From Naegleria gruberi (lineage: Eukaryota), in the NCBI GenBank assembly GCA_000004985.1, contig GG738911.1: a stretch of 64,000 bases of DNA, one strand, 5' to 3'. This document shows positions 6,752-48,670 of this stretch, piece by piece (positions within the stretch are counted from its first letter, which is position 1; every line of letters starts with the position of its first letter). The notes below the pieces were generated by a model. It did not search any database. It had not been told where the DNA came from and was given only the letters and a program-made list of their open reading frames with translations. Both the position numbers and the translations under genes were made by a program.

Positions 6752-7735
6752 ATGATTAAAAAGAGAACCGCAAAGAATGTGTCGTTGAGAGCAAAGGAAG
6801 ATGCATCGACAATACAGCCTGCAGCCACTGCTGCTTCATCATTGAATAGTGTAGAATCATCGGATCAGAATAATCAACAAGAGGAACAAACTAATGAAAA
6901 TACAACATCAGCATCAATAACAACTGGTGAACCAGAACAAATAACATCATCGGAAAGGCTGGAGGAGGATGGAGACAATATTAATGAAACACTGGAGAAG
7001 ACAATTTTAAAACAAAAGCTGAGAAGTAGACCAAAAGGAATGCAAGCAAACTTAAAAACTGGTGATTTGTTCGATTTGGACAAGATTAAAAACAGTTCAG
7101 TGCAAAGAAAAAAGGAAAAGCTGAATATTCTGCAAGGAGGTACTCAAGGAGGTCTGGTTGATAGAAATAGTGGAGATTGGATTGCAATGAAATTAGCAAA
7201 TATGGAAAAGGCAAAGATTATGGGTTCAACATCACAATTAGCTATGGATATGGCTTTCACAGAAGCCGAATTATCAGAGCAGGACAAGAGATTATTCGAA
7301 TTTATTAAAGAACGTATGAAGGAACAAGGATATTCATACGATCAAATTGTAAATAATGATGACGAGGATGAAGGAATTGAAAAAGCAAAGAAAAAGATTT
7401 CTGTAGATATTAACGAGCTATTGGAGAAGGAAAAGAATCTCTATAAATTACCAGATGAATTAAAAGTGGAAAAGATTGATATTTCGAGTTTAACAAGACG
7501 AAAGGATAATGCCAACAAGGAAGCAAAACCTTTAACAGAGGAGGAACGACAAAAACTCTTGAGTGGTGCCATTCTAGAAGTTCCACTTTCAACAGCAGCA
7601 AAGGTGGAAAACATTAGAGAAACCAATGAGAAAGTGAAAGAATTGGAAGACAATAACAAGAGAAAATATCACCAAACTGCCTCTGATGAATATGTCTTTA
7701 CACAATACAAGAAGAAGTATGCCCATAAAAGATGA
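6752..7735 (+). CDS. Charged coiled-coil protein, probably of the HCA59 / C9orf78 (TLS1) family.
   Basis: 327-aa Lys/Glu-rich ORF. The C-terminal 'KRKYHQTASDEYVFTQYKKKYAHKR' resembles the human C9orf78 C-terminus 'KATDDYHYEKFKKMNRRY'. Central 'KTGDLFDLDKIK...' resembles the family core. From memory only. Confidence 0.4.
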   Translation: MIKKRTAKNVSLRAKEDASTIQPAATAASSLNSVESSDQNNQQEEQTNENTTSASITTGEPEQITSSERLEEDGDNINETLEKTILKQKLRSRPKGMQANLKTGDLFDLDKIKNSSVQRKKEKLNILQGGTQGGLVDRNSGDWIAMKLANMEKAKIMGSTSQLAMDMAFTEAELSEQDKRLFEFIKERMKEQGYSYDQIVNNDDEDEGIEKAKKKISVDINELLEKEKNLYKLPDELKVEKIDISSLTRRKDNANKEAKPLTEEERQKLLSGAILEVPLSTAAKVENIRETNEKVKELEDNNKRKYHQTASDEYVFTQYKKKYAHKR

Positions 7736-7830
7736 TTCATTTGTCTTACATTTGCAGAGATTGTTGCATTGTTTAATCCAATTTAGAATAAGATCCAGTA
7801 ACATGATCTTTATTGAAAAATTTGATTTAA

Positions 7831-8733
7831 CTATTTATAAATTAGAATTTCTTTTGTTCCCGAATTACACAAGAACAATTCTCCATTCTTATCATTAATT
7901 ACAATACCGTACGGAGATGATAAACTTTCCAGTTCTGTCACTGTCTTCAATATATTGAATTGTCTATCTAATATGTATATTTTACCATTGGCATCAGTGA
8001 GATAGATCAATCTCGTCTTTTTTTCATACCACACACTGAAGCATCTATTTGGGGTGGTGTTTTCCAAGGTTTTGATCTTTTCCCATGTCGCAGAGTTTTC
8101 ATTGAATTTCATAATGTGTAACTGATCTACTCCACAAACAATCATTTCCTCTTCTGGAGTGAAAACCAAATCAACCAATTGTCTATCAAGATCTATTTGA
8201 ATATCATCGCGTAATTTTCCTGTCTTTGAGTCATAAACAAACATTTTCTGTGCATAATCAATTACATAAATTTCAGTTTTGAAACATTTTACACCCCAAA
8301 TATGTTGAAATTTCATTTCAGCTTTCCAAATAGGTTCTCCCACTTCCTTATTCTTTATCATTTCAGTAAAATTATACTTGAACAGCTCATTAGTTGAACT
8401 AGAAATAATCAAATTCAATTGACCAGAAAATTCTCTCTCCAAATCCAAACTATAAATCCCATCATCAAAAGGAATATGTAATAATCTTTCATGAGTGATC
8501 AAATCGTAAACAATAACAGAATTCGCACCTGCAATTAAATAATTCAACTCCTGACAAATTACCAAATTATAAATACTTGAATCATCAGGTTCGGAAAGAT
8601 TTTTAATTTTTGTAAAATTCTGAGAAAATTCAATGGAGACAGGTGAGCATAATTTCTTTTTGAATTTTGCTAATAAATTGGTGGGAATGTGTGGTTGTAG
8701 ATCGATGAGAGTGATGACAGCTTGATCATCCAT
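7831..8733 (-). CDS. Hypothetical 300-aa protein, probably a beta-propeller (NHL/WD-like) fold.
   Basis: Intact ORF with ATG. Repeated beta-strand-like segments ('IYVIDYAQKMFVYDSKTGKL', 'IYLTDANGKIYILD', 'LFLCNSGTKEILIYK'). No catalytic motifs. Confidence 0.35.
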   Translation of the reverse strand: MDDQAVITLIDLQPHIPTNLLAKFKKKLCSPVSIEFSQNFTKIKNLSEPDDSSIYNLVICQELNYLIAGANSVIVYDLITHERLLHIPFDDGIYSLDLEREFSGQLNLIISSSTNELFKYNFTEMIKNKEVGEPIWKAEMKFQHIWGVKCFKTEIYVIDYAQKMFVYDSKTGKLRDDIQIDLDRQLVDLVFTPEEEMIVCGVDQLHIMKFNENSATWEKIKTLENTTPNRCFSVWYEKKTRLIYLTDANGKIYILDRQFNILKTVTELESLSSPYGIVINDKNGELFLCNSGTKEILIYK

Positions 8734-9118
8734 TTTTTTTTAGGTTATTAAAATTGTTCATTTTGAACTTTACAAATATTGTAAAGTCTGTGCAATGTTC
8801 TCCAAGGTCCTCATAATGCTTGGTACAAATGACTACAAATACCATGCACAATTTCCTTTTAAATAAATTGTCCAACAACAACTTGCAGCGCCTTAGTAAA
8901 AATTTGTCGCACACTTTTCACACACTTAAAAACAATTTCAAAAAAAACCCAAAATAGCTATGAAAATGCACCAAGAGATTGCCAACAAGTGGTTTGTTTC
9001 TTTTTTAACGGAATATTCATGATTTTTAACAACCGCTCTCTCTGAGAAGGGACCAAGTGTTAGCAGAGTGTGAAAATTTGCTCAATGAACGAGAATTCAT
9101 CATTCATTCCACTGATGA

Positions 9119-9720
9119 GTGATTGAGGTGAGTTCTCTTGCTGATGCGAAGGGAACAATCATTAAAGGAAGAGGCGTGTTGTGTGATTGTAAACCTGAAG
9201 AGGTGTTGCATCTCTTCTTATCGGTCACTGATGAGGAAAGAGCAAGGTACGATAGGGCAACTAAAACTATTGCAGTTTTGGAAGAGTTTGAGAAGGATGG
9301 AAGGAAGTATAGAATTAATCAATATATTCTCAATTCTCCAGGTAGGTATTGAGTAGTTTCGTATTATTATTGAATGACTGGCCAATTGTAGCATTCTTGA
9401 TTGCTGAAAGAGATTTCATTTATGTAGAGCATGTGAAAAGAGAGGGAAATGTGACAATTCTCCTTACAACGTCCATTGATGGAATGTTTCCAGAAGATAA
9501 AATTCCACAACTTGATGGAACTGTCAGAGGCACCAATTATTTCAATTATCTCAAATTGACTCAACTTGATAATGGTGATTTGGAATATATTACTCTATCA
9601 CAAGGTAATCCAAATGGCTTTATTCCACTAGCCATTTCCAATGCATTTGTTTATGAGAGACCAAAATTAATGGTCACAGCAGGAGAACAGGTTTTGAAAA
9701 AGAAATGTAAACTTGAATAA
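9119..9720 (+). CDS. START (StAR-related lipid-transfer / Bet v1-like) domain protein. Two exons in the window, join(9119..9341, 9392..9720); a 5' exon carrying the ATG is probably missing from this model.
   Basis: START hallmarks: 'KPEEVLHLFLSVTDEERARYD', 'ERDFIYVEHVKREGNVTILLTTSIDG', 'GTVRGTNYFNYLKL', 'GNPNGFIPLAISNAFV'. Intron 9342..9391 (50 nt, GTAGGT...TGTAG) is in phase 1 and joins the two track ORFs (…ILNSP-A-FLIAERDF…). The first track ORF starts at GTG with no in-frame ATG, so a small upstream exon is likely. Confidence 0.6.
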
Positions 9721-9813
9721 ATCCAAGAAAATCACCATGATATTGAGTCTATTTCATTCCAAGAATAACTCCAATAGGATTACTTATTTGCTGCTGAATA
9801 TTCCATAATCAAA

Positions 9814-11208
9814 TCAAAGGATTGTACCCAACTTGGATTTCACATCCAATGACTGACAATTTTTAAGAACTGTTTCAAAGAATTGTGCATTATCTGGAAT
9901 GTGATTGCACCACTCGGGAAGCTGAGTGTAAAACTCGTAGCACTTCTCACCGTGGAAAGAATAATAAAAGGCGTGAAGATGAATTAAAAACTCTCCATCC
10001 TTTGGCTCCTCTTTTGAGAATCGTTCCCATTGCATTTGCATCATTTCTTTTGCACATTGAGTTTCGTCTTGCTCGTTTCGTTTCATAATTTCCCATTTTT
10101 CTGGCCAAGGATTTTCCCAATTTTCTCCCTTATCAACCAATTCAAATCCAACATCGTTAATAATTGGATATCCCATCACTCTTAAATGTTCTCTGATTTG
10201 ATGTGTTCTGCCTGTTATTGGTATAGCAATTACAATACTCCTCGATGATGCAGGGTCGTAATAGATTCTTTTCACAAGTGTATAGGCCGTGTCTGTATTC
10301 TTTGGATCTGTGCTGTCCGAGCCGTTTTCACTCGAATCAGCTCTCCAAATAAAAGTCCAATCATTTTGCTTGTAGACCATTTTGTTTTTCACATGAATAA
10401 ATCCTTCCTTATCCTTGTGGAATGATTGACCATTTAGTAAGACATGCTCTCCGCTCATATTTTCTGTTTCAGGAAATTCTCCATAAACCTGGGCCAAATA
10501 GCACTTCCTTACATTGCCCTCCTTCATAGTGTCTTGATAAGATTTGGCCAAAGCAGCATTCCAAGTATGAATAAGTACGCCACTCGTTACCTTATCCAAT
10601 CTATGAATTAAAAACAATTTCCTTCCCAAGGCACTTTCCAATAAATAATGTAAACTATTCTTTACAAATCTTCCAGCTGGATGAACTGGAATTGAAGATG
10701 GTTTATCAATTACCAAAAACTCATCATCATGATACAAAACTCGAATAAACTCTCTATAGAGAACTGGCTTTTCATTCTTCCAATCTACCGTAACAATCTG
10801 ATCATTTGATCTTAATTTATATTCCAACACTGAAACTGAAGTCGGTTTCTGAGTGGTGAGTGTAATAATTCCCTTCTCAATCATTTCCTTACTCACTTGT
10901 TCTGGCATTTTGAATTCGGAGGACAAAACTTCCATTGTCGTCTTTTTAAACCATCTCGTTCTAACATTGGTTCGATGATTGGTTTTATGCGGTTTAACGA
11001 ATTGATAAATCCCTCCAAATAATTCAAATTCACTCCTCAAATCCAATTCAATATCATCCAAAGCCTTTCCATGAGAAAATTCATTATCATCGGATAATTT
11101 TAGAATAATTTTGTAATTAATTTTAGGCTTTTGTATTATCGGCTGATGATGTTCATCATTATTTTCTTCCTGTGTTGGTGAAGAGATGACATTTTGGTCT
11201 TGCAGCAT
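9814..11208 (-). CDS. RluA-family pseudouridine synthase (RPUSD2-like).
   Basis: Catalytic motif 'LIHRLDKVTSGVLI' (the HRLD aspartate of RluA/TruD-type synthases), plus 'VIDKPSSIPVHPAGRF'. The track ORF starts at TTG (11220); the first ATG is at 11208. Confidence 0.7.
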   Translation of the reverse strand: MLQDQNVISSPTQEENNDEHHQPIIQKPKINYKIILKLSDDNEFSHGKALDDIELDLRSEFELFGGIYQFVKPHKTNHRTNVRTRWFKKTTMEVLSSEFKMPEQVSKEMIEKGIITLTTQKPTSVSVLEYKLRSNDQIVTVDWKNEKPVLYREFIRVLYHDDEFLVIDKPSSIPVHPAGRFVKNSLHYLLESALGRKLFLIHRLDKVTSGVLIHTWNAALAKSYQDTMKEGNVRKCYLAQVYGEFPETENMSGEHVLLNGQSFHKDKEGFIHVKNKMVYKQNDWTFIWRADSSENGSDSTDPKNTDTAYTLVKRIYYDPASSRSIVIAIPITGRTHQIREHLRVMGYPIINDVGFELVDKGENWENPWPEKWEIMKRNEQDETQCAKEMMQMQWERFSKEEPKDGEFLIHLHAFYYSFHGEKCYEFYTQLPEWCNHIPDNAQFFETVLKNCQSLDVKSKLGTIL

Positions 11209-11287
11209 TTTTTTTAACAATTTTTAAATTAAATATTTTTTAAATACTTTAAATTTTTTTGTAATATTTATTTACAATTTTTAAATA

Positions 11288-12874
11288 TTATTTATCTGAT
11301 TGCTGATCCACATTGACAGCATCATGTTCTCCCTCCTCATCATCACTCGTATCAATATCACTTGTTGTTTCCTGAATTTGCAATGAGAATGGTAACCAAC
11401 CTCCACTCGTACTCAATATGGTGGTGTGAATTGGTGGTGGTGGATTATCCACATGTCCATCGCCGCTTCCATTCGTAACTGCTTGTTGCATATCTGTGAG
11501 TTGATTTGCAGTTTCTGTATTCGAATGTATCGATCCTCCATGAATACTTGAAGTGGTGCTCTCAGTATCACTATTGGCATCACCACCAATGGGTTGTAGG
11601 AGTTGTCTTCTACAGAATGGACAAGTGAAAGATCCAGATCTCATCCATTGACTGATGCAAGTAAGGTGGAATATGTGTCCACATTCTAATTTTCTGCAAT
11701 CTTTCAATTCTTGGTGTGAAAAGTTTTCATGACAAATGGAACACAATTCCTGATGTGTTATTTCCTCGTGGATTGGTATTGGGAAATGATCTTTGAGAAG
11801 GAGTGTAATTTTCTTGTATTCTAAAAGTCTCTTTGCTTGAATTCTGAATTCATTGAAAGAGTTGTTAATAAGGGCAAAGAGGAGAACGTCAATTACAGCA
11901 AATTGCAATCCATTATTATACCAAACATGCATATAATGAGCAATTGCAATTAAGAGCAATAGAATTTCCAATACGAATTGAGTGACATAAATAGTTTCCG
12001 TATTGAAAATCAACGTCAAAAGCTTCTTTGCGAATGAAGATGGTTTTTGTTGGTTATTATTTGAATCCTTATTGATCAGATCGAAAATTTCACAAACAAA
12101 ACCTCCATACTTGGCAAAAAGTCTTGCATTCTCCAATAATAGGGTGACATTCTCATAAATAAATAGTAAATAATATGAATAGTCATTATTATAAAATCCA
12201 ATCACATAAACTGTTGCGAATAGAATCATTGCCAAGTCCACAAAGAATATAATCGAAAGTAAAATAATCAAATCCAAATGTTTCTCCTTTTGTGGATTCA
12301 AAACATCCTCCATCATTGCACTGGTCCTCACTCTACAAATAATATTAAACGTTTTCAAAATTCCAATAATTGACAACCAAACAATCCATATAATAATCTC
12401 ATTCAAATAATTAATATTTGTAAAATGATTCAGAATATAAAACACGAATAAGGTGTTAATTGTTACATAGGGAATTAATCCATTCGAAAATGCATCCTTC
12501 TCTTTCTGAGTAATATTCCCCAAAAATCTATGCAACACATATCTGCATCCATAATAGAGAGCCAAAAAGACAGTATGCAAATGCACCAACACTCCCAACT
12601 TGTTGTGCAAAATCAAATATTCATAATAATTAAAAAACTCCTCAAATAAATAAGAAAGAAATCCCTGATCTGAATCCTTATTAGTAATTGGTGAATGTAA
12701 TCTCATATTCTCTCCTCCAAACATTTGATCGCTTATTGAAGATTCCACAGATTGTTGACTTGCCAATAATTTCTGTTCGGGCACAACCACATATCGATAA
12801 TATATAAAAACTGATACAGTTAATGTGATTGAAATTAATCTCCAACTCGGAGATGTCAGTGTTCTATGAAGCAT
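11288..12874 (-). CDS. Polytopic membrane RING-H2 E3 ubiquitin ligase (Hrd1/TRC8-like architecture).
   Basis: 528 aa. Multiple hydrophobic helices in the N-terminal two thirds. C-terminal RING-H2 'CSICHENFSHQELKDCRKLECGHIFHLTCISQWMRSGSFTCPFCR' (C3H2C3 spacing). Confidence 0.65.
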   Translation of the reverse strand: MLHRTLTSPSWRLISITLTVSVFIYYRYVVVPEQKLLASQQSVESSISDQMFGGENMRLHSPITNKDSDQGFLSYLFEEFFNYYEYLILHNKLGVLVHLHTVFLALYYGCRYVLHRFLGNITQKEKDAFSNGLIPYVTINTLFVFYILNHFTNINYLNEIIIWIVWLSIIGILKTFNIICRVRTSAMMEDVLNPQKEKHLDLIILLSIIFFVDLAMILFATVYVIGFYNNDYSYYLLFIYENVTLLLENARLFAKYGGFVCEIFDLINKDSNNNQQKPSSFAKKLLTLIFNTETIYVTQFVLEILLLLIAIAHYMHVWYNNGLQFAVIDVLLFALINNSFNEFRIQAKRLLEYKKITLLLKDHFPIPIHEEITHQELCSICHENFSHQELKDCRKLECGHIFHLTCISQWMRSGSFTCPFCRRQLLQPIGGDANSDTESTTSSIHGGSIHSNTETANQLTDMQQAVTNGSGDGHVDNPPPPIHTTILSTSGGWLPFSLQIQETTSDIDTSDDEEGEHDAVNVDQQSDK

Positions 12875-39800: not shown

Positions 39801-42116
39801 GATTTATTTTCTTAATAATTCAATATAGATATTTATCTGGTGTTAAGAAACAAATCAAACTAATGCAAGAAAATGTATCCAAGAATGAAATTGGTAAATT
39901 ATTCCATGATTTGGGAAAGAAAGTAAGCGATGATACTCATTTGAGGGCTTCCAGGAATGCTTTATTGACACCAAAAAACTTGTTTTCTTTGTTTGGATTT
40001 TTAACCATTGTAATTGTTTCAATTTGTTGTGGTATTTACTTGAGTGAAACTTTAGGAAATTCTACATACAGTTTTGAATCATACGTTACCATGGAAGATG
40101 GTTTTGATGCCATGTCATACTTACAGCATACCACATTTGCAATTTCAGAGGTATTTATTCATGCTGTGAATGCAAAGTTCAATGTCAGTGAGAGCAGTTA
40201 TGCTCTTCTTGGGAATAGTGATATTGAACTAATGGCCACTGGATTTACAACTACTGTGAAATCATTGAGATACTATTGGAATTTATGTATGTATGGATCG
40301 GCTGTAAAGGCCTATGAAACCCTTGTTGTGGGAATGTTTACTGAAACAGATGACATGATAAGAGGAGAGGTTAATTGTGATATCGAGGCTTCTTTAAAGA
40401 CTTTTGAAAAAATCAAATCCTCTGGAAATTCTACAACTTATTGTAAAATGGGTGTTGACTACATGGTACAAGATATTATTCTAAAATGTTCTAATTTGAA
40501 AGAGGATATCAAGACCTTACCGCAACTGAGCAATTTCAAATCTACTAGCTTGAATTTTTTCAATGAGTTTTATAGTATTGCCTATCTTACCAATGCAGTG
40601 TCTATGAAATTGATAGATTTCTCAAATGTTTTTGCTGTTAAATCCGCCACTCCAAGAACAGAACAAATGATTTCTTTAGCGATTATTGCCTTGATTTTGA
40701 GTTCCACCTTTTTCGGTATAATGTACTATTCTATTGATACCTATTGGAAAGATTCTCATATTGCAAGATCATTATTTAACTATCTTTCAATTGATACATT
40801 GGAATCCAATGAAATAATTAAGAATTACGTTCTCTATCACACCACAAATGATGGTATTAAGAGAAAGAAGAAGAGCACTGAAGAATCCAAAGTGAATGCC
40901 ATTTTGAATGCTGCAGTTGATGGAGTTGTTGTTTGTGATGCTCAATTCTGGGTAAAGAGTTTCAACCCAGCTGCTTCCAGAATGTTTGGAGCTCAACAAG
41001 AAGAGTTTGTGAATAAGCCAATCTATTGTTTGATGACTCCTTGGTTCCATGACGATGTTCGTAAATTCCTGAATGCTTCCAAGAACAATACTAGTCTCAA
41101 TGACGCCAAATCAGCATCATTTGAAGTGGATTGTGTCAGAACAAATCTTTCAACATTCTCAGCAAGAATTAACCTTTTCATTACCGTTTTTGATAAGAAA
41201 CCAATTGTTACATGTTTCATTAAGGATATTACTTCAGAGAAGAAGCACAACTCACTTCTTCAAGAAGAAAGAAAGCACTCTGAAGATCTCTTGCTTAACA
41301 TTTTACCAAGTGCTGTTGCCACAAAATTGAAAGGAGGAGCCAGCTTGATTGCTGAGAAATTCCCAGATGTAACATGTTTCTTCTCTGATATGGTTGGATT
41401 TACGGCATTATCTTCTAAAATGGGTCCTAATGACCTAGTTCAAATGTTGAATACTATTGTTATTGGATTTGATGATTTAATGGATGTTTATCACCTTGAA
41501 AAGATTAAAACTATTGGTGATGCCTATTTCTGTGCAGGGTATGTTGTTTATATTAATTAATATATACTAATAATTATTCAGAGGTCTTCATGATTTGAAT
41601 GCCCAATCTGATCACCCTGAGAGAACTTTGAGATTTGCTATTGATACATTTGGAGTTATTAGAAATTATAACTTGAAATTTAGAAGAAACAATTTGAAGG
41701 AACAAATTAACATTAGAATTGGTATTAATACTGGGCCAGTTGTTGCTGGTGTCATTGGACGTAAGAAGTTTGCCTACGATTTGTGGGGTGACTCTATTAA
41801 TACAGCCTCTAGAATGGAATCAAATTCCAAGCCAGGAAGAATTCAAGTTTCCAGATCTACTTATGAAAGAGTTTTTGATTTAGGACTTGTTTTTGAGGAA
41901 AGAAAAATTGAAGTGAAAGGAAAGGGAATGTGTCAAACCTATTTGTTGGATGCTAAGCACCATACATCTGCTATAATTACAGAAGAGGATGTAAAAAACT
42001 CTGCTGATAAAGAAACCAAATCTGAGATTGCTGCACACACCGCTCCAATTGATAATCACGAATTGGAGATTGAGTTAGTACCAAAAACACCAAAAGGTGA
42101 AGTTGAAAATCAATAA
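36833..42116 (+). CDS. Polytopic membrane PAS-domain class III nucleotidyl cyclase (adenylyl-cyclase-type specificity residues), 1746 aa, two exons: join(36833..41538, 41582..42116).
   Basis: Cyclase catalytic core 'FPDVTCFFSDMVGFTALSS…KIKTIGDAYFCAG|GLHD…RIGINTGPVVAGVIGRKKFAYDLWGDSINTASRMES', split by a 43-nt intron (41539..41581, GTATGT…TACTAAT…CAG, phase 2). Upstream PAS-like 'ILNAAVDGVVVCDAQFWVKSFNPAASRMFGAQQEEFVNKPIYCLMTP'. Many hydrophobic helices in the N-terminal 1300 aa. The Lys (KIKTIGD) and Asp (YDLWG) at substrate-specifying positions predict ATP. Confidence 0.75.
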
Positions 42117-42293
42117 ATTATTAGGATTTTATTTCTATTAGAATTAAAATACTAACCAATTGAAGAACAACCACTCTCATCATCGAATTTAACATTTACA
42201 ATTTCAAAATTGATTAATGATTTTTATTAAATTGTGTCACCTCAAATTGCTTTAGTCTTTTTATGTCCTCTGCATCAAAATGAAATGCTTCGT

Positions 42294-43766
42294 CTACTTT
42301 TCTCTTCTNNNNNNNNNNNNNNNNNNNNNNNNNNNNNNNNNNNNNNNNNNNNNNNNNNNNNNNNNNNNNNNNNNNNNNNNNNNNNNNNNNNNNNNNNNNN
42401 NNNNNNNNNNNNNNNNNNNNNNNNNNNNNNNNNNNNNNNNNNNNNNNNNNNNNNNNNNNNNNNNNNNNNNNNNNNNNNNNNNNNNNNNNNNNNNNNNNNN
42501 NNNNNNNNNNNNNNNNNNNNNNNNNNNNNNNNNNNNNNNNNNNNNNNNNNNNNNNNNNNNNNNNNNNNNNNNNNNNNNNNNNNNNNNNNNNNNNNNNNNN
42601 NNNNNNNNNNNNNNNNNNNNNNNNNNNNNNNNNNNNNNNNNNNNNNNNNNNNNNNNNNNNNNNNNNNNNNNNNNNNNNNNNNNNNNNNNNNNNNNNNNNN
42701 NNNNNNNNNNNNNNNNNNNNNNNNNNNNNNNNNNNNNNNNNNNNNNNNNNNNNNNNNNNNNNNNNNNNNNNNNNNNNNATTGATAGAGGGATTCTTTGGT
42801 AATGTTCACATTTGTTTGAGGCGAATTGGATTGATTAGGAATATTATTAACATGTGATGTAAAATCTCCCAAAGGAACTTGTTTTTGTTGGAATAATTGT
42901 TGTGGATTATTTTGAGGGGATTGGTTGTAAACCATTTGATTCTGGTTCACCTTAAAGTTATCCATGTTCATTTGTTGAGATGGTTTTTGTGGAGAGAATG
43001 TTCCTTGATTGAAGAATTGAGTGTCTGGAGAATGTGAATGTTGCATCGAACCATTGGGTATGTTCTTGTCCATTGTTGCAGATTGGTAATTGGTATTATT
43101 TTGGCCATTACCGTTGGTGCTATTGTTAAGCATCATGTTCATGTTATTTCCATTAGATGGAACTTTTTGATTCATTTGATTCATCACTTGTGTTTGATTC
43201 ATTCTTGTCGGAGATGCCATCATTTGATTAAAGTTCTGTTGTTGTGGTTGCTTTTGGAGGAATGTATTATTTGGATTGTTATTACTGGTGTTTGCATTAG
43301 ATCCTCCTCCATTATTTAAAGAGGTAGTAGGTAAGGTATTATGGAAATCAAAGGATTGATATTGTTGTTGCGGAGTTAACTCATCATTATATGATTGGAA
43401 GAGTCTATCATTTTCTAAATTAACCTTATTCGAGACCGAGGCATGGATCATTTGTTGTTGATGAATGTTATTCATCATGTTTTGGGAAGCCTTTTGGTAG
43501 TGGTTTTGAGGAGAGTGGAGATTATTCATTACGTTGTTAGAATTACTCGTATAGTTGTTGGTGTTATTCATGTTCGATAAATGGAGATTGTTATTAATAT
43601 TGTTATTTGTATTATTATTGTTTTGGAGGTGATGATGATAGGAGGATGAAGAACCTTGTTGATGTTGTTGTTGAGACGTGTTATTGTTCGAGGAGGAGCT
43701 ACTAAGGGATAATTGAGGTGGTAGTTTTAAGAGTGGATTATGATGACCTTGTTCCATCGAAGACAT
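42294..43766 (-). CDS. Gln/Asn-rich low-complexity protein, interrupted by the assembly gap (42309..42778).
   Basis: ORF with an ATG at 43766. Poly-N/Q/H composition. 470 N's fall inside the reading frame, so length and frame across the gap are unknowable. Confidence 0.35.
   Translation of the reverse strand: MSSMEQGHHNPLLKLPPQLSLSSSSSNNNTSQQQHQQGSSSSYHHHLQNNNNTNNNINNNLHLSNMNNTNNYTSNSNNVMNNLHSPQNHYQKASQNMMNNIHQQQMIHASVSNKVNLENDRLFQSYNDELTPQQQYQSFDFHNTLPTTSLNNGGGSNANTSNNNPNNTFLQKQPQQQNFNQMMASPTRMNQTQVMNQMNQKVPSNGNNMNMMLNNSTNGNGQNNTNYQSATMDKNIPNGSMQHSHSPDTQFFNQGTFSPQKPSQQMNMDNFKVNQNQMVYNQSPQNNPQQLFQQKQVPLGDFTSHVNNIPNQSNSPQTNVNITKESLYQXXXXXXXXXXXXXXXXXXXXXXXXXXXXXXXXXXXXXXXXXXXXXXXXXXXXXXXXXXXXXXXXXXXXXXXXXXXXXXXXXXXXXXXXXXXXXXXXXXXXXXXXXXXXXXXXXXXXXXXXXXXXXXXXXXXXXXXXXXXXXXXXXXXXXXXXXXXXXRREK
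42309..42778. other. Assembly gap (470 N).
   Basis: A run of n characters in the sequence. Confidence 1.
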
Positions 43767-45131
43767 TTTATTTGAAAAAGGAGAGAAACTTGCAATTTCC
43801 TTGTGAGAGTTTATTATCTTTTAAAAGAGGCTGTTGGACCTCTGGCGAGTTTTAATGTGTTTTGGGGGATTTAAGCAAACTCTGAATAGAAATTTTTGGT
43901 CCTAAACATTGTATAAGGAACTCTCTTAGTGAAGATACTTTTTTAGCCAGGTACGTGCCTATAATAGACAGTTTCTTCACCCAAAAGGAGGCTTAAGTAC
44001 ATTGTTTACCGCTTGTATTCGGCGAAAACAAAGGAACGATTTTGCTCACATTGATAAAAACAAACTCCTTGCCTTATTGATCAACATTTCAGCAAATAAA
44101 TTTAAGAAGGTTCTATTAAGTATTTAAAGAAGGTTCTTTATTTCAATATCAATATTTTCATTCATGAGCATTTAACAACCTTCCTCCGTTCTTCTCCAAT
44201 GATTATGAGGAGAAATAAATGCATCATATCTCTATTTACAACAACGACCTTTTAGGATGACCTTAATTAGCAAGCTTAATAACAAACTAATGCAAAAAGT
44301 TCATCAATAGGTCGCCGTTGATCATAGTCTAAGCGTAAACTAACTCATATCATGTGTGTTAATCAGTTTTTGATTACATGAAGGCTCAGGAAAGTGAAAC
44401 ATAAACGTGGCCTTAATTGGAAGCTGTACAATTGATAGATTATAAAGCACGTCATTTCTCCTTTGTTAATATCACCAAATGCATTCTCACAATATTCAAT
44501 TTGAAAAACAACTCAATCTTCCGCTTCTCATCACCACCAACATATTATCAAGTAACCTTACACTTATCATATTGAGACAACTCTACCTTGATGAATTAAC
44601 AATTATTCAAAGATTCGGCAGACAAGGATACCAAATGGGGAAAGTCATGCGAATTTGCCGAACCTGAAAAAAGCGCGCTGGTCCAACACGTTGTGGTTTT
44701 TGTTTGGTGCTAAGAGGGTGGGGCCACACAGAAGGACAGAGATGCCGCACTCTTTTCACTCATTTGGCATTGTGTGTACATAAAACAATTAAATTATTTA
44801 CAACAATGTGCTTCTCAGCTGCTGGTAGTAGTACAGTGCTCGCCTTTGTTTAGATGCAGAATTTTCCTTTGAGAAAAAAATCACCACAACAAGACAAGGA
44901 AAAGCACCACTCTCTTTCCTTAGAATAATTTTGATTAACTAACCAAATAGTAGTAACAATTCTCGGTTATATTGAACAAGATAACAACAACATCATCAAT
45001 AGCACACTTTGTAAAATAGGCTCTTGATCTCTAATATTCTCCATCATTCTCTCTATTAATAGCTTTAGTAATATTACTTCTCAAGGAGGAGAGAAAGAAA
45101 TCAAAATCGAGTATATATACATTGAAAAAAC

Positions 45132-46328
45132 ATGAGACAATATCCTCTTGTTTGTGGCAACGTTAAATGCAAAACGAGTCAAACACCATTGTGGCGTAAA
45201 GGTTGGACCACAAAGGAAGGTAAACCAGTCATGTTATGTAATGCCTGTGGTTGTAAGTTATTATATACCAACGAATTGTCATCCTAATTATTACCCAAAT
45301 ATGATGACATGAAAAATTAAATATTTTCATTGAACCAACCGAACAGTGCACTACAAGTATGTATTCAATCAATTTTAATTTACTGATCATCTATTATCAT
45401 CATCAATAGGAAGGGACACTTTTGCATATATTGCAATCAAATTTACAAGGAAAGTGATGCTGATGATAAAGAAGAACCATGGATTGGATGTGATAGTTGT
45501 CATCGTTGGGTTCATCAAAATTGTGAGCGTCAGAATGGATTTGAAATTAAACCAAATGGTTATCTGTGTCCTTGTTGCAGAAATCAACCAAGTAATGGAT
45601 CGGTACCTTCAAACATTCCAGCTGCTGCATTAACTGCTGCTGCTAACAAACATTATGAACCAATTCTTATGAAACCAGGTGCAGGATCCAGTAATAGTAA
45701 GGAAAATAAGAAGAGAAGAAGAAAACCAACTCTTGAAACAAATTCAAAGAAGGTTAAACAAGAAATGAAACAACAATTAACAATTGATATTAACAATTCA
45801 AAATCTAATAGTAATCAAACATTATCTAGCCAAAATACTTCAAACCGATTATGTACACCAACAAGTGCTTTGAGTCTTTCTCCATCAACAACATTGGGAC
45901 TCCCTAAAGCACCACAACCTTCTACAAGTACTTGTTATTTTGATAATCCAAAACAATTATATGATGTTGATTCCTATTATAAAGAGAATGAATCACAGTG
46001 CATTTCACCATCAACCAATTCAAAACTTTCCATGAGTAGTGATGACGAATATTCATATGAGAGCAATACTGAAGAGGAAGAAGAGGATGAATATGAATCC
46101 GACAATTCTCCACAAGCCTCCTTCATTTGTGGCGAAGATTTCATAGATAATCAACAAGAGTTTATCATTTGGGATCCTCTCAAAGATAAGAAGAGTTCTG
46201 TTGGAGTTTCTTTCGAGCAAGTTGAAAACCTAATTAACAAGAACTTTGGTTATTCAACCTTGTTCACAAGAAAGATTCAATCACTCTCTGCAATTTGTGC
46301 TTACGAATTGTCCAATTTTGATAACTAA
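45132..46328 (+). CDS. GATA-type zinc-finger + PHD-finger protein. Best model has three exons: join(45132..45252, 45347..45356, 45410..46328), 349 aa.
   Basis: Exon 1 encodes 'CGNVKCKTSQTPLWRKGWTTKEGKPVMLCNACG' (C-x2-C-x17-C-x2-C with the TPLWR signature). The downstream frame encodes a PHD finger 'FCIYCNQ…WIGCDSCHRWVHQNCE…YLCPCCRN' (C4HC3). Both donor choices after exon 1 leave it in phase 1, which is incompatible with direct joining to the PHD frame. A 10-nt micro-exon 'TGCACTACAA' (CAG acceptor at 45346, GTATGT donor at 45357) restores the frame and yields the canonical GATA continuation 'CNACGLHYKKGH'. Confidence 0.55.
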
Positions 46329-46480
46329 GTTGCTCTCTAGGATTTCTCAATCTTATTGAAAACAAATATTCGAGTGTTTTCAATAACTCAATTTTGATTA
46401 TTTCGGCAAATAAACAACAAAAATGTAAATAACCGATTCAGTTTTAATATGTTGTTTAAAAAGTTTATTAGTTAAATAAT

Positions 46481-48670
46481 TTAAAAGTCTTCGTCATTTC
46501 TTGACAAAACAACGTCAGTAATTTGAACTTCGTCGTCATCTTCTACACGATTAGCTGAAGAAGGTTTGGTAAAGTCACTCTTATCATTTGCATCCATTTC
46601 TTTAGCTGATGCACTCAGTTCAGGTTTTCTTTCTTCATTCTTGCCAGGCATTAAGAGGAATGACAGTGAGGCAAAATAGACATAAACAATTCCGTGTAAT
46701 AAGAGGAAAGTCAATGATTGAACATCAGTTCTGAAACCATTGCCAGCAATTGTTAAACCAATGAAACAGGCAGCAACAATGAAACTGAAACTACCAACAA
46801 CTCTAAATCTGGAAGAGTACTTGGCTTTGAGTTTACCAACAGCTCCCATAGCACGGAAAATATAATAAGCCAAATCAATACCCCACAAAACGAGGAAAAC
46901 AATATTAGCGGCAAGTAAATAGGCATAACCAGGAACTGATGAAATGTCAACTGAGGATGGATTGGCAACATTGTAAACTCTACTCCAAATCATCAAAATT
47001 AAGGTCAAAATGTAGCCAATACCAACAATGATAATCTTGGTCAAATAAAAGTTCATAAATGTTCTATCTTGTGGTGCCTTGAATACAGAGTGGAAGAAGA
47101 TCAAGAGATACAACAAGAATCCATAAACAAATGTTACTGAGAGAATAATGTCAACAACTGGGAAACCTTCCCAACCTGTCCACATCATGGCTGGATATAA
47201 TGGATCATGATACCAGAAGTGTAAGAACAACAAGACAACTAACCACTTTTGGGCAGTGTGCCAATTTCTCAATTGTTGTGACCAGAAAGTAACGACAAGG
47301 AAAGCAATCCAATGCAAAATTGACAAAACAGAGAAGGTCATTCTAAAGCCCAATTCGTACATGGAATATTGTGGATTGTTGGATTGCAAACTAGTCTCAA
47401 TAGCATTTTCTAATAAGCCTGAACGGTAAACATTTTCCAAATTCAAAATTGTAAGATTCATCTTGTAATTAGAATATCTAATAACTCTAGAGTGGAAGAG
47501 AGTAATTGCTGAACAACCACCAGATTGAAGAATAGACAAATATCCAGTTTGAGCACAAATCAATTCGTGAGTAGATACAGAATCATCAACATTGTTGACC
47601 ATTGTCCAATCTTCAGAATCAGAATTTCTACCATACATGTGAACTCGGACTTTAAGATCACTCTTTATGGCTGCTCCAAACAAGTCTTTCCCACCATTAA
47701 CAGGATTTAATTTCAGAATATATTTAAACTCCATAGCATAAATACTAATACTATCAAAGGTATCAATAATAGATCGTTTTCCTGTGAAAATTTCTTCCAT
47801 ATATGTTGGTGGTACGACAATTGTACCATTATCAGGTGTAGTACCATTGTTAGGGGCAGGATTGATTGGATCTGTAGAATTGGTTGTGGAATTACTAGTT
47901 CCATTCGTGATGATGGTATCATTACCAATAACAGTTCCATTATTGATAGTGTCATTACCAGAAGTGTAATTATTATTTGTGGTATTACTAATCACTGTAC
48001 TATTATCAATGATCGTATCATTACCAGAGGTGTAATTACCAGATGTATCATTACCATAGGTATAATTACCAGTTGTGGTATTACTAATAGTTGTGTTATC
48101 CACAATAGTATCATTACCACTGATAATTGTGGAATTATCTGTTGATGTGTTGTTGTTGTTCATAGTAGAATTATCTGATGTAGTAGTATTGGTACTGTTA
48201 TCTATGATGGTGTTATTAGAATAATCAGAAGTATTAGAATTAGTAGTACTATTATCAACAATGCTGCCATTATTAACTAGTGTACTATTATCACCACCAA
48301 CAACAATATCTGTCCCATTTGTAGTAGTAGAATTGCCTCCATCAGTAGTAGTGTCTGTGGTGGTACTATTTGTCGAATTATCTTCCACTATTGTATTTTC
48401 TATAGTTAATTCCAAAACTTCATCACGATCCTGTTCAGTAATAAATTTATAATCCTCTACAAGACTATTTGTGGTTGTAACAATGGTAGAACCATTACTA
48501 CTATGCCTCCTTGTTACCGTAACAGAGGCTTCTGGGCTCGCAAACAGAGAAATAATAACAAATAATCCTACAATCAGCAAGACGAGCACTAAAATCAAGA
48601 TGACACTCCATCGCGGAAGACAATCCAATACAAATTCATACCGCTTGGAACGATCTCGGCGAAGATTCAT
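46481..48670 (-). CDS. Type I membrane protein with a mucin-like Thr/Asn-rich ectodomain and a C-terminal 7-transmembrane domain, possibly of the Lung-7TM-receptor (GPR107/TMEM87-like) family.
   Basis: N-terminal signal/anchor 'WSVILILVLVLLIVGLFVIISLFA'. About 250 aa of N-x-T/S sequons. Seven hydrophobic helices in the last roughly 300 aa. The family assignment rests on topology only. Confidence 0.5.
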   Translation of the reverse strand: MNLRRDRSKRYEFVLDCLPRWSVILILVLVLLIVGLFVIISLFASPEASVTVTRRHSSNGSTIVTTTNSLVEDYKFITEQDRDEVLELTIENTIVEDNSTNSTTTDTTTDGGNSTTTNGTDIVVGGDNSTLVNNGSIVDNSTTNSNTSDYSNNTIIDNSTNTTTSDNSTMNNNNTSTDNSTIISGNDTIVDNTTISNTTTGNYTYGNDTSGNYTSGNDTIIDNSTVISNTTNNNYTSGNDTINNGTVIGNDTIITNGTSNSTTNSTDPINPAPNNGTTPDNGTIVVPPTYMEEIFTGKRSIIDTFDSISIYAMEFKYILKLNPVNGGKDLFGAAIKSDLKVRVHMYGRNSDSEDWTMVNNVDDSVSTHELICAQTGYLSILQSGGCSAITLFHSRVIRYSNYKMNLTILNLENVYRSGLLENAIETSLQSNNPQYSMYELGFRMTFSVLSILHWIAFLVVTFWSQQLRNWHTAQKWLVVLLFLHFWYHDPLYPAMMWTGWEGFPVVDIILSVTFVYGFLLYLLIFFHSVFKAPQDRTFMNFYLTKIIIVGIGYILTLILMIWSRVYNVANPSSVDISSVPGYAYLLAANIVFLVLWGIDLAYYIFRAMGAVGKLKAKYSSRFRVVGSFSFIVAACFIGLTIAGNGFRTDVQSLTFLLLHGIVYVYFASLSFLLMPGKNEERKPELSASAKEMDANDKSDFTKPSSANRVEDDDEVQITDVVLSRNDEDF

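Follow-up and report, generated by a model that had tools for sequence, protein, structure and literature searches.

Exon-intron structure of a GATA-PHD gene in Naegleria gruberi

The DNA analyzed here is a stretch of 64,000 nucleotides (nt) from Naegleria gruberi (GenBank assembly GCA_000004985.1, contig GG738911.1), referred to below as the window and numbered from its first letter along one strand. Positions 45132 to 46328 hold a gene for a protein with a GATA-type zinc finger followed by a PHD-type finger. Comparison with related sequences indicates that this is probably a gene of three exons, the middle one being a constitutive coding micro-exon of 10 nt at 45347-45356. Its two introns sit between the last cysteine pair of the GATA-type finger and the first cysteine of the PHD-type finger. 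The parts of the gene are as follows.

45132-45252, plus strand: exon 1, 121 nt, with the ATG at 45132; residues 1-40 (MRQYPLVCGNVKCKTSQTPLWRKGWTTKEGKPVMLCNACG) and T, the first base of the Leu41 codon
45253-45346, plus strand: intron 1, 94 nt, phase 1, with donor GTAAGT at 45253 and the end aacAG
45325-45335, plus strand: intron-1 motif TTTCATTGAAC, common to four Naegleria-like species in the intron alignment
45347-45356, plus strand: micro-exon TGCACTACAA, 10 nt, preceded by cAG at 45344-45346 and followed by GTATGT at 45357
45357-45409, plus strand: intron 2, 53 nt, phase 2, GTATGT...caatAG, with a branch-like TACTGAT at 45381-45387
45410-46328, plus strand: exon 3, 919 nt including the TAA stop at 46326-46328; last base of Lys44 and residues 45-349

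Exon 1 translates as MRQYPL...LCNACG, followed by one extra T (phase 1), and codes for the zinc knuckle and the strands of the GATA-type finger. Two codons 5' of the ATG there is a TGA in frame, and all orthologues begin MRQ.... The micro-exon supplies bases 2-3 of Leu41, His42, Tyr43 and bases 1-2 of Lys44; removal of both introns would join T/TGCACTACAA/G..., restoring the frame together with the Leu-His-Tyr-Lys end of the GATA-finger helix. The spliced coding sequence would be 1050 nt long for 349 residues and reads CNACG-LHYK-KGHFC across the junction. With the micro-exon included, the open frame contains CNACGLHYKKGH, which is identical to the family consensus, and the exon 3 product aligns with its homologues to the C-terminus. 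The pattern AG-TRCAYTAYAA-GT has one match in the window, compared with 0.02 expected from shuffles; each of the related genomic loci has exactly one match as well, invariably at the homologous site. A preliminary description of this DNA had proposed the same exon ends, 10-mer, donors, TACTGAT motif and final acceptor, all of which proved to be correctly placed.

Conservation of the micro-exon in related species

Among 5.8 billion proteins searched, 26 homologues were found; one is the Willaertia magna protein ABK040_015109, which is 49% identical at full length, another comes from Acrasis kona, and look-up added the transcriptome proteins of Pharyngomonas kirbyi and Gocevia fonbrunei. All homologues read ...LCNACGLHYKKGH[F/Y/S]C... 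at the junction peptide. In alignments of 19-21 members Cys-36, Asn-37, Ala-38, Cys-39, Gly-40 and Lys-45 are invariant, and Leu-41, His-42 and His-47 are at least 90% conserved. When genomic DNA was compared, a 10-nt exon was found at the identical position in four further species besides N. gruberi.

Naegleria sp., run SRR15442690: micro-exon tAG/TACATTATAA/GTAAGT
N. lovaniensis: micro-exon tAG/TACATTACAA/GTAGGT
Relative from run SRR636569: micro-exon cAG/TGCATTACAA/GTAAGT
W. magna (two near-identical contigs): micro-exon cAG/TACATTACAA/GTAAGT

Across the five species three positions of the micro-exon vary, all of them third-codon positions, and the differences are synonymous only. In the SRR636569 species exon 1 ends in C and not T, so that the split codon becomes CTG, which still codes for Leu. 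The micro-exon measures 10 nt in all five species, while the length of intron 1 lies between 90 and 189 nt and that of intron 2 between 38 and 178 nt, and both introns are poorly alignable. In a forced alignment the mean pairwise identity is 0.86 for the micro-exon against 0.50 and 0.36 for the interiors of the two introns. The deposited W. magna coding sequence (ABK040_015109) includes the micro-exon, and its LHYKK peptide can be obtained only in that way. The preliminary description had read the junction of the N. gruberi gene as CNACG-LHYK-KGH through this 10-nt exon and had proposed a comparison with orthologous genes; the family consensus, the four related species and the W. magna model all bear that reading out.

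The peptide CNACGLHY[KR]KGH is contiguous in A. kona, in one metagenomic relative and in one N. lovaniensis paralogue, of which the first has one intron, elsewhere, the second none, and the third one, near the W codon. The contiguous peptide in these relatives implies that the peptide is ancestral and that the paired introns are lineage-specific. Judged from the genomic sequences compared, the two introns 10 nt apart are a shared feature of the Naegleria-Willaertia lineage.

The W. magna locus is present in two near-identical copies (JBEGDK010000136 and 077) with the same neighbours, which differ in the length of intron 2 (178 and 137 nt, an indel) and may be haplotigs or the result of a recent duplication. 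W. magna also carries an extra intron within the Trp21 codon that is not found in Naegleria.

Recognition and skipping of the micro-exon

Because the two introns, of 94 and 53 nt, are short and bear the consensus donors GTAAGT and GTATGT, the micro-exon would most likely be recognized through intron definition, the introns being excised separately and probably in succession. Exon definition would be sterically impossible, since 10 nt cannot hold the factors of the upstream 3' and the downstream 5' splice site together. Both splicing itself and the order of intron removal are what we infer here. Branch-like motifs lie 5' of the acceptors, TACTGAT in intron 2 and a TTGAAC-type motif in intron 1. 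The 11-nt sequence TTTC[A/G]TTGAAC is conserved in intron 1 of four Naegleria-like species. It has one match in the window, where 0.30 are expected by chance and 27 of 100 shuffles contain at least one, so that the single match is not improbable. In N. gruberi it lies 10 nt before the acceptor AG, in the other three species about 40-46 nt before it. This motif may be a branch site or an element that promotes splicing of the micro-exon. Skipping of the micro-exon would join T to GA or AA, giving an immediate stop in four of the five species (TAA in the SRR15442690 species), and would give CAA in the species from SRR636569.

Alternative gene models

The preliminary description had argued that the gene requires a micro-exon, on the ground that the PHD frame can only be entered in certain phases. 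This argument was overstated. When every GT...AG combination with introns of at least 30 nt that gives a stop-free path from the ATG to the known C-terminus was enumerated, the N. gruberi sequence gave 10 single-intron and 66 two-intron solutions in frame. Since single-intron joins in frame exist, comparison with relatives has to decide, and among the 76 solutions only 45253/45346/45357/45409 reproduces the family consensus. As far as the sequence goes, the choice of the micro-exon rests on homology, and the reading frame alone does not force it. The most plausible competitor joins the weak donor AAG/GTTATT at 45257, the second GT of GTAAGT, to the acceptor at 45409 in a single intron, which gives CNACG-CK-KGHFC and leaves the 10-mer as mere intron. 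The donor GT of this model, the +5/+6 GT of GTAAGT, occurs in every species, and so does the CK alternative as a whole, because a shift of +4 nt has the same effect on phase as one of +10 nt. We nevertheless regard it as very unlikely: it removes Leu41-His42-Tyr43, which are conserved throughout the family, including its intronless and transcript-derived members; it cannot explain why AG-N10-GT is conserved in exact length, with synonymous changes only, inside diverged introns; GTTATT is far from the GTAAGT and GTATGT of the other sites; and the deposited W. magna model does not contain this join. An exon of 14 nt, with donor GTATTC at 45361 and acceptor at 45413, had been put forward in the preliminary description as another way to reach the PHD finger, through LHYKYGH. 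The resulting CNACG-LHYKY-GHFC is indeed in frame and open in N. gruberi, but it places Tyr at the invariant Lys-45 and depends on GTATTC, which is poor as a donor next to the GTATGT that overlaps it. The corresponding exon of 14 nt in the SRR15442690 species (TACATTATAAGTAA) would be read as TTA CAT TAT AAG TAA and thus runs into a stop; the 14-nt solution is not conserved and is scarcely credible.

Two independent transcripts, which the preliminary description had named as an outcome that would count against its model, would mean that a mini-gene carries the GATA finger only and a second gene, with its start at an internal ATG, the PHD finger only. Open reading frames (ORFs) with the PHD finger only do exist, as two proteins predicted from unspliced contigs by prokaryote-style ORF callers, but they begin inside intron 2, and one of them reads TGA as Trp. 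Both domains lie in one ORF, three residues apart, in every intronless or transcript-derived homologue, which contradicts this scenario, and the GATA-PHD cassette matches the PHD-L domain of the plant VAL proteins as one unit; a split into two genes is accordingly given almost no weight. The micro-exon might also be real but alternative, its inclusion being regulated and its skipping serving as an off-switch that produces a truncated 40-residue peptide or a target of nonsense-mediated decay. The skip-and-stop outcome in four of the five species favors such a switch, and the conserved intron-1 motif TTTC[A/G]TTGAAC could be a regulatory element for inclusion. We also counted in its favor a statement in the plant micro-exon catalogue that, in plants, detained introns are found next to micro-exons more frequently than next to exons of other kinds (PMC8831610). 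However, the stop on skipping follows nearly automatically from the conserved T / [A/G]A context of the Leu and Lys codons, the SRR636569 species has no such stop, and the strong consensus splice sites favor constitutive use. Regulated inclusion is thus an unlikely account of the micro-exon.

Several observations weigh against a three-exon gene with a constitutive micro-exon and a GATA-PHD product. The single-intron CK join is in frame with canonical GT-AG ends and could represent a minor isoform. Intron 2 of the SRR15442690 species, which ends in AG, is very short at 38 nt. The W. magna genome paper (2025) describes a BRAKER2 annotation with RNA-seq (PMC11702301), but the deposited model belongs to GCA_041937235.1, which could not be tied to that annotation, since the paper gives BioProject numbers only. 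A degenerate pattern for the spliced junction, run against JGI metagenome and metatranscriptome contigs, gave only two matches, both of them non-Naegleria members of the family. At the protein level, the PHD finger scores 21.2 bits with Pfam PF00628 (E 3e-4), below the gathering cut-off of 24. The GATA finger has the atypical spacing C8-x4-C13-x22-C36-x2-C39, which departs from C-x2-C-x17-20-C-x2-C; Cys-8, Asn-10 and Cys-13 are invariant in the 19-21 family members. The PHD finger starts three residues after the KK, and the GATA finger is without the basic tail of canonical GATA fingers. DNA binding is uncertain because the finger is atypical and has no such tail.

The predicted GATA-PHD protein

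The spliced gene would encode a nuclear protein of 349 residues that consists of a GATA-like and PHD cassette of about 100 residues, a KKRRRKP motif, a disordered low-complexity middle and a conserved two-helix C-terminus. Beyond the exons listed above, the following coding features were placed.

45423-45578, plus strand: PHD-type C4HC3 finger, residues 49-100 (Pfam PHD E 3e-4)
45708-45728, plus strand: KKRRRKP basic motif, residues 144-150, family-conserved, with KKRR in the consensus
46158-46310, plus strand: conserved C-terminal region EFIIWDP...SFEQVENL...SLSAICAYEL, with SLWAxCE in the family consensus

The GATA finger is matched by Pfam PF00320 over residues 12-46 with 41.1 bits (E 1.4e-10), above the gathering cut-off of 26.8. 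The PHD ligands Cys-49, Cys-52, Cys-71, Cys-74, His-79, Cys-82, Cys-97 and Cys-100 (C4HC3) are invariant in the family alignment, and sequence and fold searches both matched many PHD fingers of the PDB. Over its N-terminal 105 residues the Willaertia orthologue is 93% identical to the N. gruberi protein, with block means of 84-95 in the predicted local distance difference test (pLDDT). The AlphaFold2 model of this orthologue has a helix at residues 37-44, which places the micro-exon in the C-terminal half of the GATA-finger helix. Further toward the C-terminus, helices are predicted at residues 360-371 and 375-396 of the Willaertia orthologue (pLDDT 67-79), and the conserved two-helix region matched no Pfam family. 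KKRRRKP (residues 144-150) is probably a nuclear localization signal.

Analogy with known proteins makes the product most likely a chromatin-associated nuclear regulator. The KKRRRKP motif, the disordered middle and the conserved two-helix C-terminus support this reading. The cassette would have DNA and/or a histone tail or partner protein as its ligand, as is the case for the PHD-L of plant VAL1/VAL2; it is this biochemical function that we infer, while what the sequences show directly is their anatomy, their conservation and the likeness of the domains. The corrected gene model is that of a probable N. gruberi chromatin or transcription regulator.

HMMER, run exhaustively on 1.84 billion cluster representatives with the Willaertia orthologue as query, found 423 proteins at E ≤ 1e-3 and 95 at E ≤ 1e-10; most span the whole cassette of about 100 residues. 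Named members are N. lovaniensis (a paralogue), Planoprotostelium fungivorum and Amorphochlora amoebiformis. The GATA+PHD pairing, which the preliminary description had called uncommon, is a recurrent conserved module in many protists (Discoba, Amoebozoa and Rhizaria) and not an unusual fusion. The cassette occurs in two proteins of the amoebozoan P. fungivorum and in the rhizarian A. amoebiformis, whose protein also contains zf-CW and ARID domains and recalls the PHD-L...CW architecture of plant VAL1.

Neighboring genes and annotation of the locus

The window is AT-rich, with approximately 33% G+C. Three of its long ORFs match N. gruberi reference proteins exactly (EFC38075/XP_002670819, EFC38133 and EFC38138), which identifies the DNA as that of strain NEG-M. 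The gene is flanked on one side by a gap-containing Q/N-rich ORF and on the other by a Wntless-like membrane-protein gene (46481-48670, minus strand). The gap is a run of 470 N at 42309-42778, within the Q/N-rich ORF (42294-43766, minus strand), and the low G+C of 42001-44000 is due to this run. The Wntless-like gene (PF06664) is an unbroken ORF of 729 residues, whereas the N. gruberi reference protein has only 587; the reference model apparently spliced out an in-frame N/T/S-rich low-complexity stretch as an intron, which looks questionable. An Rfam scan of 43500-46800 matched no family, and the strand opposite the GATA-PHD gene has no ORF longer than 66 residues.

No N. gruberi protein for the GATA-PHD gene was found in the search of 5.8 billion proteins, which is word-indexed and non-exhaustive and also missed the N. 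lovaniensis model. Protein search did find the N. gruberi reference protein of the Wntless-like neighbor, at 100% identity. Another homology search gave only eight candidates, none from Naegleria. The absence of a N. gruberi gene model from the protein search is suggestive of a missing annotation, though short of proof.

In N. lovaniensis (PYSW02000007.1; positions 7678-12639 of the locus compared, minus strand) the orthologue is merged with an upstream RCC1-repeat gene into a model of 1384 residues, with a Pfam GATA domain on record. This model is probably a mis-fusion caused by the difficult intron and micro-exon structure, and the merger shows that the locus is hard for annotation pipelines. 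A metagenome contig from ERR1078381, 99% identical and unspliced, has an ORF called through intron 2 with TGA read as tryptophan, which has placed a spurious PHD-only protein in public collections. Gene finding in heteroloboseans needs micro-exon-aware methods.

Comparison with known systems

Ultra-short coding micro-exons are also known in animals and fungi. Those of plants, of 15 nt or less, are catalogued by Yu et al. (2022, PMC8831610). Like the plant micro-exons, the Naegleria exon is far below the size range of aligners and gene finders, has canonical splice sites and codes for part of a conserved protein motif. As with the catalogued cases, its position and length are conserved while the flanking introns have diverged, and it is prone to being missed or mis-modelled. 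It differs in its host, a heterolobosean amoeba, in its very short flanking introns (38-189 nt) and in the intron definition expected for it. Within the literature library searched, no paper deals with micro-exons in Naegleria by title or abstract, and nothing relevant came up on Naegleria, GATA and PHD together. The sequence comparisons support a real micro-exon and, with it, an annotation catch and not a novel type of biology; ultra-short micro-exons are already well documented, and so is their misannotation. The gene offers a clean case from five species in which very short introns enclose a conserved 10-nt exon; for such an exon only intron-defined, and probably sequential, splicing would be available.

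The canonical GATA factors (GATA1-6 and AreA; PF00320) share T-x-LWR and CNACGL-Y-K with the Naegleria finger, and its best sequence matches in the PDB are GATA3 and GATA1. In contrast to these, the Naegleria finger has C-x4-C in place of C-x2-C, a loop of 22 residues in place of 17-18, and no basic tail. In the ADD domain (ATRX-DNMT3-DNMT3L) a GATA-like C4 finger is packed directly on a PHD finger, together with a C-terminal helix, to form a single globular module that reads histone tails. The order of the two fingers, GATA-like and then PHD, is the same in the Naegleria cassette; the ADD domain of ATRX (3qln) is a weak Foldseek match (rank 35, E 0.048, probability 0.69) and gave no sequence match. 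For the PHD finger by itself the best sequence match is PHD3 of MLL1 (KMT2A), with E 7e-6 for the single sequence and 3e-7 for the profile. The two fingers share G-x-F-C-x-x-C-x-x-x-Y...D-D...C-x-x-C-x-R-W-V-H-x-x-C-E, although PHD3 is one finger by itself, and the protein that contains it is very different. The A. kona orthologue (JAOPGA020000780.1) is named a 'histone-lysine N-methyltransferase', while Pfam finds only GATA and PHD domains in it and no SET domain; the name probably derives from the resemblance to MLL PHD3 and is misleading.

The closest solved structure to the Naegleria cassette is the PHD-L domain of Arabidopsis VAL1/VAL2 (HSI2/HSL1; PDB IDs 5yug, 5yuh and 5z28). The likeness covers the entire cassette, with E 2e-6 in phmmer and E 1e-7 for the family profile (positions 5-105); both have the C-x4-C and W-[RK]-K-G-W signatures, and the top five Foldseek matches in the PDB are all VAL PHD-L. 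The Naegleria protein differs from VAL in being without the B3, CW and EAR domains and in keeping the GATA signatures TPLWR and CNACGLxYK, which are lost in VAL; compared with VAL2, its PHD finger is a complete C4HC3 with a 9-residue insertion. With Pfam PF25813 (zf_VAL1_N) the N. gruberi protein gave no match at E ≤ 1, whereas a VAL2 fragment scores 84 bits, and for this reason we do not file it as a member of the VAL family. The cassette resembles VAL PHD-L and may share ancestry with it. Plant PHD-L is needed for dimerization and for H3K27me3-linked silencing and is a reported reader of H3K27me2/3 (PMC7383879; PMC5934628). In the literature library searched, no paper joins 'GATA-like', 'PHD' and 'VAL1'. 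That the heterolobosean cassette is the ancestral, GATA-like form of plant PHD-L, an ancient pan-eukaryotic reader, and that micro-exon skipping acts on it as an on/off switch of splicing, is a speculative combination to which we assign a low probability. The wide occurrence of the cassette in protists and its likeness to VAL PHD-L suggest an origin for a 'plant-specific' domain that is key to Polycomb silencing in Arabidopsis. If the ancestral reading were true, PHD-L would be an ancient pan-eukaryotic unit for reading DNA or chromatin, and not a plant invention.

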